Translations under genes and position numbers: made by a program
Notes under the pieces: model-generated
Seen by the model: only the letters and a program-made list of their open reading frames with translations
Told to the model about the DNA's origin: nothing
Databases searched by the model: none
Part shown: positions 19,987 through 31,732 of the stretch, in pieces
Numbering within the stretch: position 1 is the first letter of the stretch
Layout: each line of letters starts with the position of its first letter
Origin: Paramecium tetraurelia
Lineage: Eukaryota
Direction: 5' to 3'
DNA: 64,000 nt
Assembly (NCBI GenBank): GCA_000165425.1
Contig: CT867985.1
Coordinates: forward strand, 248,001-312,000

Positions 19987-22631
<2,645 letters not shown>

Positions 22632-22697
22632 TTTTCGAATTATCTTTTAAATAGTAAATTATAAACTTCAATTCATAAGTTAGTTAATAATATAATA

Positions 22698-23765
22698 TCA
22701 ATTGTTCCATTTAAGTAGTTTTCCATCAACCCATTCTCCTTCCTTTAGAATTCTGTTAGTTCCTTTGTATTACCCTTTTCCATGTTGTTTACCGTCTTTC
22801 CAATAACCTTTGTATACTCTTCCATCTGGCCAATAGAATTCTCCATATCCTTCCTTCTTATCATTCACATAGCCACCAACATAACGTCTATATATATTAC
22901 TTGATAGATTTACCTTCCATCTGACCAACTAAAGACTCCTTGACCATCCATTTAGTTATCCTTCCAATCTCCTTCGTATTCTCTATTATCTGCCCAAATG
23001 TAATGTCCTTTACCATGAATATTGTTATTAATGAATTCTCCAACGTATGAACTACCATCTGGCCAACTAAATCTTCCTTGTCCATGTTTCATACCATTAG
23101 TATAAGTTCCTTCAAACATAGAACCATCAGCCCACTTTTCTAATCCATTGCCGTGTTATTAGTCTTCATACCATTCCCCTTTATAAAAAGCTCCGTCTTT
23201 GTGACTGTAGACTCCAAAACCATGGGCTTTGTCATTTAACCATTTGCCTTCATAGAGATCTCCATCTGAATGAATCAGTCTTCCTTCTCCATTAGCTTTG
23301 TCTTGTAACCAATATCCTTCATAAATTGAACCATCAGCCCAAAATTGTTTTCCTCTCCCATGTCTGAATCCGTTCTTCCATTATCCATAGTAAAAGACAC
23401 TTGGTTCTATTTCAACTGGCCCATAGAAAGGTAGTGATTTAAATTCAAACGGTTCATTTTGATCGTAATTAAATGGTTATAACTAATCAATTAAGGGCTT
23501 GGTAAAAGCATTAGTAAAGTCTGGAATTGAATCCAATTTCTTTAAGTCTTGTCTACAATTATTACATCAATAACAACCTAATATGCTATTAGACTATGAA
23601 ACTAGCATTCTGAGATTTAACAGCACTCTGAGCTAACTTACTTTTCTAGGCCTGTTATTGTACATTTTCTTGATCTTCAAAGTTTGGCTTGTTCTTGAAG
23701 GGTCTCATTTATTCCCCTGCATGTTCATAAATAGATGGATCGTCACATGTAGCACAATTCCCCAT
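22698..23765 (-). CDS. MORN-repeat protein with N-terminal MGNC acylation motif
   Basis: MGNCATCDD, then repeats such as [28 protein letters not shown]. Confidence 0.92.
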
Positions 23766-23806
23766 AGAAATTAAAAATAACAGCAAAAATTTATTAATTA
23801 AATAAT

Positions 23807-24129
23807 ATGAGTACCGAAATAGATATATATAAGTAGGTCCAATTGTTGGTCTTCCATTTACATATTTCTACTTCGGCACTTTATTGGGTAATTCGTCATT
23901 CAAAAATAGATTGATGCCAGGAAATATCATCCATTTTTGAACAGGATTATTCATATAAGAACTTAATGAATTTATCAACAAAAATCAAGTAAGAAGTTCT
24001 ATATACTAATTCTTTAGGCTCTATCGATTCTGGAGGGCTTATCTGTAGTAGCTTTACTGCCCACAATCCTCAAATGGAAGTTGAAAGAATAGAATAAGAA
24101 GAGATTAACTTAGTATAAAAATTGAATGA
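23807..24129 (+). pseudogene. Truncated TMEM41/DedA (SNARE-associated/VTT) C-terminal relic
   Basis: Reads SPIVGLPFTYFYFGTLLG..LMPGNIIHF*TGLFIQEL..LSVVALLPTILKWK. In-frame TGA at 23938-23940, N-terminal half missing, and splicing the 22-nt intron shifts the frame. Confidence 0.65.
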
Positions 24130-24165
24130 TTAATTGTATAATATGAACAATTTAATCTATTATTT

Positions 24166-25018
24166 TCATCTTAAAGTTTAAATAAATGAGCTCACAATTT
24201 GTATAAATTCCTAAGGCTTTTCAGAATGGACCCAATGACCGCAATCCTAAATGAAATGTGCCTCCTTAAAATTAGGGAAAACCATTTTCATCTGATTAAC
24301 CGTCTAATTATTAACATATTGAGATCTATCTCCACAGATTACACAATGAGGACCTTTCCAATTAGCTGTTATGTCTGTTAAAATATTAGTTTAAAAATCA
24401 TTTAGTATCCCTTATAAATTAACCCTCCATTTAAAATCATATTAAATATCCTCTAATTAGTATATACGCTATATAATTACTTCTCATTATCGGTTGTTAT
24501 GATTATAAATTTGTCATTAATAATTAAGCAATTGATTTATTTTGAGAGGCTTCAAAAACTTTTTCCATTAATTGATTATAGGTGATTTGATTTAAGTTTA
24601 TTTAGATTAGCTTTTTCAGTAATTCATGGACATATGTTGATTGAACAGCTTTTGGCAATATATCGACGATAATTACTCCTTTCACTTTTTCTTAGACTTC
24701 TTTTTCATATTATTGTAGATATTTAAAAATAACTCTGCCACCCAAAGAATGTCCTAACAATACAACATCATTAATTCCTTTTATATAATCTGATAGATCT
24801 CCTGCCATTTCCCCTAAAGTCATAGACTGAGTATGTGGAGATTCCCCATGATTTCTCAGATCCAATAAATGTGTTGAATTGAGTTGACTAGTCCATAAAG
24901 GAGATTAAGAAACTGTCTTAAAATTGTTTTTAGATCCCATCAACCCATGTAGTATTACCAAATTCAAGTTAGAATTATGATAAAATTTCTAAATAGATGA
25001 TTATACTATAGAGGTCAT
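24166..25018 (-). CDS. ABHD11/YbfF-like esterase
   Basis: Motifs VILHGLMGSKNNF, LDLRNHGESPH, GHSLGG and GHWVHSEKP. Confidence 0.92.
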
Positions 25019-25084
25019 TATTTATCAATAATAAATTATAATATTAAGCAATTCTAATTCGCAATTTATTTGTAATATTTAACT

Positions 25085-28000
25085 ATGAGTCAGCTTAATT
25101 AGTAGAGTGTGATTATTTTGCTATTACTTTAAGCTTGACAAAAGTATTAAAAAAATTAATCAATCAATCTTATATAGTTTGAATAGACTGGGTTTCTGAT
25201 TATTTAGTATTAATTATGTTGGTGAATTCAAATATTCTTTAAGTTTTAAGATAATTTAATTTTATTAGTAAATTTATCTTGACTAATTGTTTCTTTTTGG
25301 TTTAATTGATTCATAAATAAATAATAATGTTAAATTAAACATTAAATGATGCTTAAATAGTGGCTGGTATTGACAATTAATAGCAGAAGGTAATTTACAT
25401 TTCTCTATTGTCTTAGAATCATTGTGTATATAATTGTGAAGTCTATCCGAATGGTGAAAAGCCACTATTATTAATGTGCACATAATATTTGGCTGTAGAT
25501 GATAAATTAAAATGGAATGTGTTTTTAAGTTATGTGCGCACTTTAGGTATCTAGGATTAACATCGATTAGGGCTGAAAGTGGACCGACAGTTCTATGCCA
25601 ATTTGCGAAAGATTTATGAACAGATATTCACTCATTGCTAAGAAGAAGATCTCATATTATTGGAGTCCTAGTTTGGTAAGCCTGCAGAAGGCTATCAAGA
25701 TAATCAATTATAAGAAATTTTCTTCATGTTTTCAAAATGTTCGCCTTTTAACAATGATGCTAGAACGGGAAGGTTTCTCAAGATTGGTGCTTAATTGGAG
25801 CCAGAAAATCTAGATGATAGGTCCACCGTTGTTGCTGTTCAATTATTCAGAAAGTTTTTTCTCTAATATGCTGATTATAACTTTAAAGTAAAGAACAATT
25901 TAAATTTCAGCAACCAAACCCATTTCACATAATTAAAAATAGCAACGCTATACATTATGATACTACAGTTGTTAGGGAGAAGATAGTTAATATATTGATA
26001 AAGAATGAAGACTTTTTAAATTACATTGAAAAACACACCTCACTTTTTTAGAGTCAATCCTTTTTTGATCAACAAAAGAAGTCAGATCTTTAGAAGGAGA
26101 TTTTGATGAAATTTCTGATTGAAAACACTGATTTACATCACTTCATAATTATGGTATATGATTTATTGAACAAAGTAACTGAAGGAGAATTCAATTCAAC
26201 TCTTATTCTAAAACATATATCCTTGTAAATTCTAGATCCCTTTATACATCCCCTTGCTTTGTCGATTTGTGACTTTTATGAATAAATTTTGGAAGAAGAA
26301 TATGAAGGTACAGAGGATGTCAAGTAAATGAAAGAGAAATATCTGCCGAAAATTACATTTCTCAATATGGATGGATATGATTCAGAATTCAATTACAAAT
26401 TGTTGGATAATTACTCAGATTCATGCCAATACATATCAGTTTTGGATGAAATGTTGGATAGTGACGATAAATCTTAAATGTTTGATTTGGTGACCAAGGA
26501 CAGAAATTGCTTTATGTAGGCCAAAAACTCTTATATCATTCCAATTAGATAGAGTCATAAATAAAAAAGATTAAATGATATGCATTTTAGACACATCTTA
26601 GATCTACTTGTTTATCCTTTGATCAAATCTTTCTAGCCTTAGGTTATTATTTTTAGTTACTCATTTGCATATTTTAATCAAGAATCTGATATCCAATTAT
26701 CTTCCAAATTATTTACAGAAATTACTACTCATTTGTCATTGATCAGTAATTACAAAGTCATTTTTCTACCTAGAATTTTATCATCTGGAGTATAAATTCA
26801 AGATCACAGATTTGAAATTGAACTCCTAAAAACTGACCATAAGAATATCCTATACTATTTGAATATTTATTTAACACACGCTTAGTAAAGTTTTAAGTTT
26901 TTACATCCATCTATTTAATAGAATTGTGAATTATCGCATTATGCAAATTATGCAATGAAAATAGTTAAGAGCAATAGTTTTTATGAAAAGAAAAAGTAAG
27001 GCAATATTACACATTATGTTTTAAATAAAGAAAAGGAAAGATATATGTTTGAAATATTGTCAGGCTTTCTTGAATCCTGTAGAAGTATCATATATTTGGT
27101 TATCTTTAGAATCCTACCTATAAGAAGTTAAGGATAAGGATAAGCGTATGTAAGATCCTAATCTGTAGTGTTAGGATCTATTACAATATAAGTTATCCTA
27201 TGCCAACCTGTTAGATAAACTGTATCAATTCCATCAGAAGCATCTATTCAGCAATTTATTTAAATCAACTTAATAACAAATCCATACTTATAAATTGTTG
27301 TCTAAATAGCATTAAAAAACATAAAGAAGAGAAGATTCCTAATTTGTTTCCTTTTTAGCATAAGATTTAAAAGATTACATTTATGTAATAGAGAATTTGG
27401 TTAACGGTATTATATCCTATTTATAATAGATGAACCTCAATTATTGTAAATATATCTAAGAAGATTATAATCTCCAGTTTATATACACAATAGACTTACA
27501 TAGTACTTTGTGAATTATAAATTGAAAACTATACTTTTTATTAACGTGTTATCATTCATTGATATTCGAGACATTGGAATTGTAAGATGTTTTTAAAAGC
27601 TAATAGATTCAAATAGGATTCATACTAAGTATGTTTGGTGAATTATGAATAATATCTAAACACTGTTCAGAAAACCAATTAAATTTGGGCAGAAATACAA
27701 GTCATCCATGAAACCACTGAGCCCCCTGTATTCTTTAGATCTCTGTGTTTTGATAAATTAAAGAATAACATATATTGTATATATGGCAAAGAGGCCAAGA
27801 ATAATACCCTATGTGATTCGATAGACACATACAATTTTGAAAAAGTATCTAATTCCTTCAATATTAGCAAACATATAAAACCATATATAGAGACAAAAAT
27901 ACAAAAAAGGAGAGTGACACTTATTTTGCCAGAGCATACGCTTCCTCGGCTGTATTCTCATTTGGCCAATAATAAAAGACTTGTTCTGAAGTGTGGACCT

Positions 28001-29719
28001 TTGGAGGATCATTTCTGTACGTATATCAAATAAAGTTAGAGGACATTATAATCAAGAATTCCAGAACATGGGATTTTGCAATTTAGTTGAAAGATTGTTC
28101 ATAAGTGAAGGGTCGTACCGATCTGAAAAAATCAATAAGGAATTAATAGTTCCATTATCTATGAGACCTATGTATGGATCCTTGATGCTAAGTGTGTAGT
28201 AAAATATTTTATTGAGATTCATAGAGACAACGATGAATCTGCTATCTTGATTATCGGTGGATCATAAAATGAACTACTTGTAAATATGGAATAATAAGAA
28301 TACATTGGATACAAATTTTAATAGATTGATAATCAATATTATGTGAGTGCCATCACTAATCGAGGGTAAAAGATAAATCCCATAAGTTTTTATTCGCAAA
28401 ACTAAAACATCTATTCAGTTCAAGATAAGATCTATATTTTGAATGATGCCACTCAAATATTAGGAAAATCCTATAGGTGGAATAATGAAACCAACGAATT
28501 AGAAGAAACTGATCCCTTTTCTCCTTATGGTATATTAAGCATAACTACTCTCAAAATTTCAAACAATTTATCTTCATAGGAGATATTTTAGAAAAAGAAA
28601 ATCTCTATTATCAGTATTGATGCCAAGAATGTCATCTTGAATGGCCCTTAAGTTGAATAGCCATTCGCTCAAATGCATAAGGCTATGAAATTCTTATATA
28701 AAGAATAAGATAATGTGAACTATTAAGCAAGAATTATATTTTAAGACAATAATAATAATGAGATAGTTGGTTTAATTAAAAATTTCTAATTAACCAGATA
28801 CATATATTTATATGTAAATATCAAATAAGATGAAAATGTACAATAAGGCTACCTAAAGCCATGTTCAATTTGTGTTAGCTATTCAAACAAAAGTCTTTAC
28901 TTGCTTACCACAAATATTGAAAATGGATTTGTCTATTTTACTATTTATAGTTATCAAATAAATCAATTGATTTAAGATATCAATTTGTCATTAAATAAAA
29001 ACAACACCAAATTAGTATTGAATGTGTATACCATTTTTGCTAAAGTTGTAATGCATCTACCAAATAATGTGGAAAAGATCTTCAAACAATTAACATGTGA
29101 CAATGAAAATCTATATTTGATAGGGGGATACATGGGACTTATTTATTAGTAAAATGACCTTGATTTGATATTACTTCAAGGATAGCAAACATATAAATAT
29201 CATAAACATATTGAAAATGGCAACAATAATAATTTCAAAATTCCCTTTGACAATCCTGAATAAAATTCCACATTCGGATAAAGCAATAAGTATATGTATG
29301 AATTTCCATATATTATTTGGACTGCTAAAGACCAAATTCTAATCATAGAAAAGGAATTTAAACAGAAGTTCTTTAGCGAAGTAATTGATCGAGTCCATCA
29401 TGATTTTAAAATTTGGATAACTAAATTTGAAATTTAAATGAACGAATCTTGGGAACAAGGAATTTTAGTTCTTCCATCCTTCTTACTTACTAAAGCATAT
29501 GTAGAGATGACATCCTAAGTTATCACTGATAAATTGAAAGAATAAATTTAACATAGAAAATTGGATTTGTTTCTATAAAATACAAATACTGAAGTAATTG
29601 TTATTATTAACTTAGTTTGAAACAATTGTGAAAATAGTCGATTACATCTCAATTGATTAACGAATAATATTGACATGTGCAGTACAAGTGTTAAATTTTA
29701 TCTAAATGCTGAGCTTTGA
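25085..29719 (+). CDS. Large (about 1,400-1,500 aa) protein with a degenerate HDAC-like domain and Kelch-like repeats
   Basis: Long code-6 exons. HDAC-fold-like segments at about 26130-26775 and Kelch-like RAYASSAV..VWTFGG and LIIGG at about 27720-28480. The 5' exons are uncertain. Confidence 0.65.
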
Positions 29720-30863
29720 ATTTTCACTCGAAAATTAAGAGGAGTATTTATTATAATACAAATACAATGGAACCCATTAATAACATTAACATGCTCGCAG
29801 ATACTCAGTTCCAATATTTATCCCCAAAGTTACACTCCTGGTGACAACTCAAAAATAAGCTGTTATCGAAGGGTATCAAATTTATGATCCTGTGAATGAA
29901 CATTAAACCATCAGATAATAAAACTAAAGCTAAATCATTGTAAAAATGAAAGAATAAATCAAAGTTTATAATCTAATCCCCTAAACCTGAAAATATCGAT
30001 TACAGATTTATTTATTTCAAACTTTATTCATTTCTTTATATTATCTTAATAATACTAATTCCTCAGAATCTAAGAAAGTTATTAAGGGAACCCTTTCCCA
30101 GAATCACAAATGATAATATATGAAATGTTATATTTGTCGAACTGTACTAAAAAATATTCGTGTTTGCCAATACTAACAACCGTAATTTAATATAAAATGA
30201 GTATTTCAAAAATTAGACCAAATTAAAGAGAGACCACTTAGAAAATGAAATTTTGCTACTCATAGATTTTACAATTTTATGGAAATGATCACATGTTAAG
30301 AAAGTTCAATCATAAAACACTTATTGTTATTATTGCAAAATTTACCTACTAACCACATTTTCTCTTAATGTGTATAAATTAAGCAAATTATTATTAGTTT
30401 ATTGATAGTAATAATAGTATACATATCGTTTAAGTAAATTTGCCAATCTTCTTTGATCGAATATACTTGTAAAATACAATTAATAATATATTATAGATTG
30501 TATAAATTATTTATTAAGACTGGCAAGCCTTAATTGAGAAAAAGTACTTTTATGCAAACCTTAAAGCATAATACATATTTATAAAATGAAATTTACTCCA
30601 ATCACATACTGATATTTAGGCAATTTTTATCCTTATTAATTATATAGGATTGATATAAAAATAAATATATTTTTTATTTCTTTTATAATTTCTTGATTTA
30701 TATATGAACGAATAAACTTAGGTTATATGTCTAAGTTTGCTTCAGTATGAAATCAAGTTTAGCCTTTTTACTTATAACATCTTAAATTTTTTATATAACT
30801 TATTTAAGAATTCAGATTTATCGTAAAATTCTGAAAAGTTTCTTGAATATTTGATCTGGCGTA

Positions 30864-31732
30864 ATGTTTGAATAAGTGAGCAATTCTCGGTTAGATGATA
30901 TTAATTATGAAATGAAATATTACAATAATAAATTTCTAGATGTTAAATTATCAGGGAAATTTATGGGTTCGAAAAAATTATGTATTAGGCAATAGGGTAA
31001 ATCATACTTGATATAATTTAATAAGACCTAATATCCTTTGTTTTTGGGGACAGTAGCTGGGACGCTTTTGCTTTACTTATATTGTGATTTTGTTTTACTC
31101 CAAAAATATTGTGAGATCCCAAATTTAAGTAAAGTAATTGTAACATTTCAGATACTATCAATTTATTCAATGTTCAAGGTCAATATGACAGGTAAAGTAA
31201 CACCTTTTAGATTTTAGAACCAGGAGTTCAAATGCAAACGATTTAAGATGATAAATATTTTGATGGCAAATTGTGTGAAAAATGCAAAGCCATTAAAATT
31301 GATCGTTGTTATCATTGCAAATTTTGTGATCATTGTGTAAACGATTTTGAAGCGCATTGTTTTTTGATGGCAACTTGCATAGGCAGGAGAAATATAAAAT
31401 ATTTGTTAGGGCTAGTCACATTTACAGGGATAGCGTTATACTTATTATTACTTATTTTGATTTATAAATGTAGAAGTCACTCTAATAATTATAGTATTTG
31501 TATCGGATTGTAAGAAAGAGCTAACCTTTATTATTCTAAATATTGTGAGTCTGGTTTTGACATTGGTTCACTTGAATCCGTTTATATATACGACTTGGAG
31601 AAATGCATCATAAGTAATGAAAATCTTAAGTTTATAGAATTGGACAAAAAAAGAAATGAATAGAACCAAATTCAATGGATCACTTTCATATATTTATAAT
31701 AATTACAAATAATTCTTTACTCGATTTTATGA
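30864..31732 (+). CDS. Divergent DHHC palmitoyltransferase-family protein (EAHC variant)
   Basis: Two TM segments and EPG, then CEKCKAIKIDRCYHCKFCDHCVNDFEAHCFLMATCIGRRNIKY, then two more TM segments. Three introns. Confidence 0.8.

Follow-up and report, generated by a model that had tools for sequence, protein, structure and literature searches.

A 1470-amino-acid (aa) protein of the ciliate Paramecium tetraurelia probably contains a histone deacetylase (HDAC) fold that no longer works as an enzyme. Its gene lies in a stretch of 64,000 nucleotides (nt) from NCBI GenBank assembly GCA_000165425.1 (contig CT867985.1, positions 248,001 to 312,000, forward strand). This whole stretch is called the window here, and all positions are counted from its first letter. 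Residues ~189-561 probably form a degenerate class-II-like HDAC fold, which is predicted neither to bind zinc nor to deacetylate. A probable Kelch propeller follows about 250 residues downstream. Taken together, such a protein would be a non-catalytic adaptor.

The gene (25327..29990, + strand) has 11 exons and 10 introns of 22-35 nt; nine of the ten introns run from GTA to TAG, and the tenth from GTA to CAG. All parts of it described below are on this + strand. The window is AT-rich, with a GC content of 24-32%, and its open reading frames are seen under the ciliate code only. The spliced translation under ciliate code 6 is identical to P0001, a P. tetraurelia d4-2 "hypothetical protein", with 0 mismatches over 1470 residues. 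P. pentaurelia, P. octaurelia and P. sonneborni each have an orthologue, with identities of 89-91%, and no precomputed Pfam domain is present on any of the four proteins.

A sequence-only reading of the window had drawn attention to five peptide stretches in 26130-28480, said to parallel elements of class II HDACs. All five are found in the code-6 translation, in the stated order, and they are located in exon 4 (25911-27084, aa 171-561). The same reading spoke of a very large protein, for which the actual figure is the 1470 aa given above.

The main search query for this region is 403 aa long (25875-27084). It starts 36 nt ahead of exon 4, and its initial 12 residues are spurious; they are located in the low-confidence head of the AlphaFold2 (AF2) model. 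That model was predicted from an alignment of 29 sequences (A1), with a mean predicted local distance difference test score (pLDDT) of 70.6 and a predicted TM-score (pTM) of 0.76. The core, model residues ~85-300, is confident, with pLDDT mostly 72-97, while residues 303-367 are a low-confidence insertion. On the gene, the well-predicted alpha/beta core corresponds to 26127..26774 (aa 243-458), nearly the same as the segment 26130-26775 singled out earlier. The full pseudo-deacetylase domain, as delimited by structure alignment, is at 25965..27084 (aa ~189-561) and includes the low-confidence insertion at aa ~461-525.

Compared with the Protein Data Bank (PDB) by Foldseek, the AF2 model has 386 matches at E<=1e-3, reaching E 2.2e-8 at best, with TMq 0.34-0.40. 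All of the top rows listed are class II HDACs or an HDAC-like amidohydrolase: the Hda1 complex, HDAC4, HDAC7, HDAC6, Clr3 and HDAH.

A structure search independent of Foldseek, VIA, was run over 48,161 representative chains, and its alignments cover model residues 10-403. Clr3 ranks first at 17.6 (241 residues aligned, root-mean-square deviation 4.0) and HDAC6 second at 16.8. HDAC10 is fourth at 16.3, where the matched part is the HDAC10 catalytic domain (chain residues 44-324). HDA15 is fifth at 16.2, and ranks 6-8 are bacterial deacylases at 15.6-16.1. Class I enzymes (HDAC8, HDAC3, HDAC2 and others) reach 13.4-14.7, arginases and ureohydrolases 7.4-9.5, and unrelated alpha/beta folds 8.3 or less. 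Identity in these structural alignments is 6-16%. An HDAC/arginase-type fold had been proposed from the sequence, with AlphaFold and Foldseek suggested as the check; the model does match HDACs, class II apparently nearest, by both Foldseek and VIA. For a computational result, the predicted structural assignment is solid.

The likeness to HDACs can also be followed through sequence. Word-based homologue searches returned the four Paramecium aurelia-group orthologues and nothing beyond; a word-based search with alignment A1 among proteins of 2570-5000 aa found none. HMMER, run exhaustively over 1.84 billion cluster representatives, found 42 proteins at E<=1e-3, 11 of them at E<=1e-10. Most of these homologues have 23-35% identity over query residues ~86-304. 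In that set of proteins the exon query matches P0009 (1375 aa) with E 3.8e-15 and P0010 (1429 aa) with E 6.2e-15.

Pfam was then scanned with 25 of the 42 homologues, namely every one of at least 300 aa. PF00850 (Hist_deacetyl) is found at E<0.01 in seven of these 25 and is the sole recurring family; 17 have no Pfam match and one has a weak unrelated match. P0009 scores 35 bits (E 1.2e-8), the only homologue to exceed the cut-off of 27.9, and P0010 is just under it at 27.2 bits. The window protein is thus tied to the HDAC family by a chain of significant matches that passes through homologues such as P0009, and the HDAC likeness exceeds chance.

The catalytic positions were mapped with HMMER alignments of P0009 against Arabidopsis HDA15, and of the family profile against both zebrafish HDAC6 domains. 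These alignments are singly non-significant and mutually consistent, and they agree with the mapping given by the sequence-only reading. At the position of the RPPGHHA loop stands KHISLQIL (26211..26234), with Q and I in place of the His dyad; this comes from the non-significant alignment of the family profile with zebrafish HDAC6. At the DWDVH position stands NMDGY (26364..26378), which according to the alignment of P0009 with HDA15 retains the first Zn Asp and has Tyr for the Zn His. SYSFAY (26655..26672) takes the place of SAGFDA in the HMMER alignments, with Ala for the second Zn Asp. LPRIL (26766..26780) is at the LEGGY position, by our own reading of the strand after the aligned KV of HDAC6, and both the Gly residues and the catalytic Tyr are absent.

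The 29-sequence family alignment gives the same picture column by column. The first Zn Asp column has Asp in 13/29, the Zn His column has His in 1/29 and Tyr or Phe in 22/29, and the second Zn Asp column has Asp in 0/29. The dyad columns are unconserved, and at the LEGGY position 28/29 have Pro. These counts mean that the whole family would be without the catalytic apparatus. What the family does conserve is a set of motifs peculiar to itself: LPKITFINFDGYDS, vQiISI, iPL, SHSFxF and SNYK..fP. The loss of the GHH, DxH, GFD and EGGY motifs, noticed earlier in the single sequence, is therefore borne out by the family and HMMER alignments, with one Asp (the first Zn ligand) retained.

The domain might keep a ligand pocket and bind acetyl-lysine or an acetylated polyamine as a reader, with no hydrolysis, much as class IIa HDACs bind their substrate and hardly turn it over. 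The best-conserved columns are in those strands and loops from which the HDAC active site is built, including an invariant G167, the SHSF motif and P299 (28/29), and the first Zn Asp is retained in Paramecium. Class IIa HDACs have themselves been termed pseudodeacetylases, in an excerpt of PMC12747566. Against this, conservation of the core strands may be purely structural. In class IIa HDACs, moreover, zinc site and His dyad are intact and the main change is from catalytic Tyr to His, whereas the Paramecium domain has lost the Zn His and the second Zn Asp, together with the dyad and the Gly-Gly-Tyr loop. A reader of this kind is unlikely.

The degenerate HDAC-like domain is, judging by its sequence, not in decay. 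Across the four Paramecium species no part of the protein is better conserved than the core of this domain, where 89.4% of columns are invariant; aa 401-450 reach 98%. The N-terminus has 77.4%, the Kelch-like part 79.3% and the C-terminal part 87.1%. In each of P0001-P0004 there is one HDAC-like region; a second, catalytically competent HDAC domain is absent.

Behind this domain comes a linker (27110..27581, aa 562-711) that spans the intron 27407-27429 and has no family match. It is followed by a beta-rich, Kelch-like region (27617..29335, aa ~712-1260), which has the introns 27845-27867, 28017-28039 and 28199-28224 inside it. The C-terminal region (29336..29990, aa ~1261-1470) spans the intron 29594-29615. 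It too has no family match; with P0010 it shares a weak collinear similarity (E 0.007).

Several weak signals in the Kelch-like region agree. Pfam Kelch_1 matches aa 756-792 in P0001 and its three orthologues with 12.5-16.4 bits, below the cut-off of 20.1. Kelch_4 scores 13.9-14.1 bits at the same residues and does not reach its cut-off of 21.6. Sub-threshold Kelch matches are found at the equivalent relative position in P0009, P0010 and P0067. An ESM Atlas look-up, which uses a language model, places aa 700-1250 nearest to clusters of Kelch/RAG2 propellers (0.91). The sequence contains the Gly-Gly doublets FGGS, IGGS and IGGY. An AF2 model of aa 710-1300 is all-beta, and although its pLDDT is just 40.3, Foldseek matches it mostly to KEAP1, KLHL and RAG2 propellers (best E 2.6e-5, TMq <=0.23). 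A Kelch-type propeller behind the HDAC-like domain is, from these models and profiles, likely. Kelch-like blades had been said to follow the HDAC-like domain; the blades themselves gain weak support from the sub-threshold Pfam, ESM Atlas and Foldseek results, but the gap of ~250 residues means that they are not immediately behind it.

The homologues show how far this arrangement extends. They come from metagenome or run assemblies, plus one NCBI WGS (whole genome shotgun) record. In BLASTP, P0010 matches the Paramecium protein collinearly in the HDAC-like, Kelch-like and C-terminal regions, and as far as sequence can tell the whole architecture is common to both. The P0010 gene (L001 2800-7089, + strand) is an intron-less open reading frame of 4287 nt and 1429 codons, without in-frame TAA, TAG or TGA, on a contig of 25% GC. 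Since it is uninterrupted under the standard stops, the family extends beyond organisms in which TAA and TAG code for Gln (ciliate code 6). The two open reading frames adjoining it on L001 have no Pfam match.

Not all homologues look like this. P0007, P0012, P0014, P0015 and P0017 (743-894 aa) have the HDAC-like domain near the C-terminus, after a long N-terminal region. These either have a differing architecture or are truncated gene calls. Some others, of ~300-350 aa, are scarcely larger than the HDAC-like domain, and may be gene-calling fragments.

The gene is transcribed. Raw oligo-dT RNA reads number 53, 67 and 114 in three runs, which is thin but whole-gene coverage: 18/30, 24/30 and 27/30 bins of the gene are covered. 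First mates map almost exclusively to the - strand, the orientation that common stranded libraries give for an mRNA from the + strand. At position 25861 the RNA reads have A where the window has C (3/3 and 1/2 reads, in two runs), which is probably a strain difference. A contig of 3132 nt (record 3 of run X3, depth 11.3) reaches from 26323 to 29593 with six introns removed. The RNA status of run X3 is a guess, for which the intron removal argues. With these six introns gone, the contig means that the HDAC-like and Kelch-like parts are joined on one spliced molecule.

A separate Kelch gene was considered and rejected: the frame continues across the short introns, and one contig covers both parts.

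The intron that starts at 27582 has two candidate acceptors, 10 nt apart. Removal of 35 nt (27582-27616, acceptor 27614-27616) is what is annotated, and it keeps the conserved frame. Removal of 25 nt (27582-27606, acceptor TAG at 27604-27606) leads to a TGA 14 codons on, and so to a protein of ~725 aa without the Kelch part. The 25-nt form may be unproductive, or an alternative isoform. The sequence-only reading had held that its proposal would fall if RNA put the two domains in separate genes. A single annotated protein and one contig speak for a single gene, but the 25-nt splice in that same contig would stop translation before the Kelch part.

This raises the question whether the 25-nt acceptor is the normal one. 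The main P. tetraurelia product would then be a truncated protein of ~725 aa, made up of the N-terminus, the dead HDAC domain and the linker, with the Kelch part rare or absent. The X3 contig does remove 25 nt at 27582, and every other intron in it is as annotated. The annotated 35-nt intron is also the longest of the ten, the others measuring 22-27 nt, and the five homologues of 743-894 aa are too short for a propeller behind the HDAC-like domain. All the same, the Kelch-like and C-terminal parts have the high proportions of invariant columns given above in the annotated frame, and both are collinear with P0010. Five more introns downstream are spliced in that very contig, and a separate Kelch protein would have no ATG in frame ahead of aa ~877. 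The proposal depends on one contig from one run of guessed RNA status, in a place where the raw reads reach 0.37-0.64x. It is improbable that the truncated form is the main product.

The preferred reading, a dead HDAC fold with a Kelch propeller in one adaptor protein, has a number of results that weigh against it. The best Pfam match of the query is PF00850, with E 0.027 and 14.3 bits (residues 388-450 of the protein against profile positions 204-268), below the 27.9 cut-off. The scores of P0001 and the other three Paramecium proteins lie at 12.5-14.3 bits (E 0.027-0.091), so that none reaches this curated threshold. A phmmer search with the exon against all PDB sequences has 0 matches at E<=10. 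The broader family profile, from alignment A1, has HtpG as its top PDB match (E 0.2) and HDAC6 at E 0.83, both non-significant. A full-length subfamily profile (A2) has HDAC6 as its best HDAC, at a non-significant E 0.097. HDACs or deacetylases make up 14 of the 17 weak matches of A2 to the PDB, all aligned at one place, and no Kelch match is among them. When aa 230-480 were compared with the named clusters of ESM Atlas, nothing usable was returned.

The same goes for the models. The fold was predicted from 29 sequences, and its TM-scores of 0.34-0.40 are modest because about one quarter of the AF2 model has low confidence. The mapping of catalytic positions rests on non-significant alignments and on our own reading. 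The model of aa 710-1300 was built from seven sequences only, and with a pLDDT of 40.3 and a pTM of 0.39 it is unreliable. The only contig to span both domains takes the 25-nt acceptor, and its product would end at ~aa 725. For now, the impact of the finding is limited.

Two further explanations were weighed. One is that the domain is still an enzyme with another set of residues: Paramecium does have Asp at the first Zn position, and 20/29 family members have a His within the SHSF motif. In Paramecium that His is Tyr, so that no candidate metal set is conserved family-wide, and general acid/base residues are absent; an active enzyme is very hard to credit. The other, that tools have merely placed a generic three-layer alpha/beta fold beside the HDACs without any homology, can point to the lack of a significant direct sequence match between the window protein and any HDAC and to the 6-16% identity of the structural alignments, and is most improbable given the significant chain through P0009.

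If the preferred reading of a non-catalytic adaptor is right, the protein could work as follows. The HDAC-fold domain is predicted to hold no catalytic zinc and to hydrolyse no acetyl groups, which would make it a pseudo-deacetylase. Other proteins would dock on its surface, and the propeller would offer a second platform for binding and grip a target. By analogy with HDAC10, HDAC6 and Clr3, the dead domain might pair in trans with an active class II HDAC domain or with some other partner. The protein as a whole would then be a scaffold or adaptor, a role that we infer from these analogies.

A more ambitious version can be imagined. The protein would be the first recognised representative of an unnamed family in which stand-alone pseudo-deacetylases carry a Kelch propeller, with at least 42 clusters at 50% identity, in Paramecium and on AT-rich environmental contigs. 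Docking of the dead domain in trans on an active class II deacetylase would mimic the domain pairs of HDAC6 and HDAC10, and the propeller would pick the target. The choice between the 25- and 35-nt acceptors at 27582 would decide whether a propeller-less or a full-length form is made. All of this together has a slim chance of being correct. If true, it would describe an HDAC-targeting adaptor of a hitherto undescribed kind.

The upstream neighbours (21947-25024) are ordinary genes. They are a protein kinase fragment (21947-22327, + strand), a MORN-repeat protein (22865-23566, - strand, 149 bits) and an alpha/beta hydrolase (24437-25024, - strand). At 31115-31732 (+ strand) there is a gene for a DHHC-type palmitoyltransferase (Pfam DHHC, 58.5 bits). 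Its translation shows ...CVNDFEAHC... at the expected DHHC motif, and its product may be another enzyme-like protein with a changed catalytic motif.

Pseudo-deacetylases are not new. To our knowledge, the only pseudoenzymes derived from HDACs so far are the second HDAC10 domain and, in a looser sense, the class IIa HDACs. The sequence-only reading had compared the Paramecium domain with yeast Hda2/Hda3 and with the dead domain of HDAC10. Hda2 and Hda3 are non-catalytic subunits of a different fold, and that comparison is not apt. The one with HDAC10 is: an excerpt of the HDAC10 description (PMC5454378) presents its PsiDAC domain as non-catalytic, without active-site loops, and packed on the active domain. 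The same excerpt likens the domain arrangement to the two-domain assembly of HDAC6 and to the Clr3 homodimer (PMC5454378). In HDAC10 the pseudo-deacetylase domain stands behind an active domain in the same chain (PMC5454378), whereas an active HDAC domain is missing from the Paramecium protein, which has a Kelch-like region instead.

Class IIa enzymes (HDAC4/5/7/9) are close by structure, HDAC4 and HDAC7 being the best Foldseek matches with E 2-6e-8. Excerpts of two papers describe class IIa HDACs as largely scaffolds with very low activity (PMC12747566, PMC4498904), and the second of these excerpts has the SMRT corepressor bound by the rim of the nearly inactive site (PMC4498904). Unlike class IIa HDACs, the Paramecium domain has lost all tested catalytic positions save one Asp.

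Other relatives differ in other ways. The fungal class II HDACs Clr3 and Hda1 are active enzymes, and their extra domain is no Kelch propeller, whereas the Paramecium domain is predicted to be dead and comes with a Kelch-like region. The arginase-like protein of Trypanosoma brucei (PDB 4rhi), which we take to be metal-free, belongs to the arginase branch, has a single domain and is a far weaker match.

Literature searches, checked by titles and abstract openings, listed no paper on a ciliate protein that joins Kelch repeats to a dead HDAC domain. Public sources leave this family "hypothetical" and without a Pfam domain, and the present analysis gives it a domain assignment. Histone and tubulin acetylation are prominent in ciliates, and the protein would offer a way into the targeting or regulation of deacetylases there. 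To combine a conserved, free-standing dead HDAC domain with another kind of binding module would be a novel use of the fold. Set against the pseudo-deacetylases that are already known, what is new here is a fully dead HDAC fold that stands on its own, in a new domain context and with an unnamed family around it.

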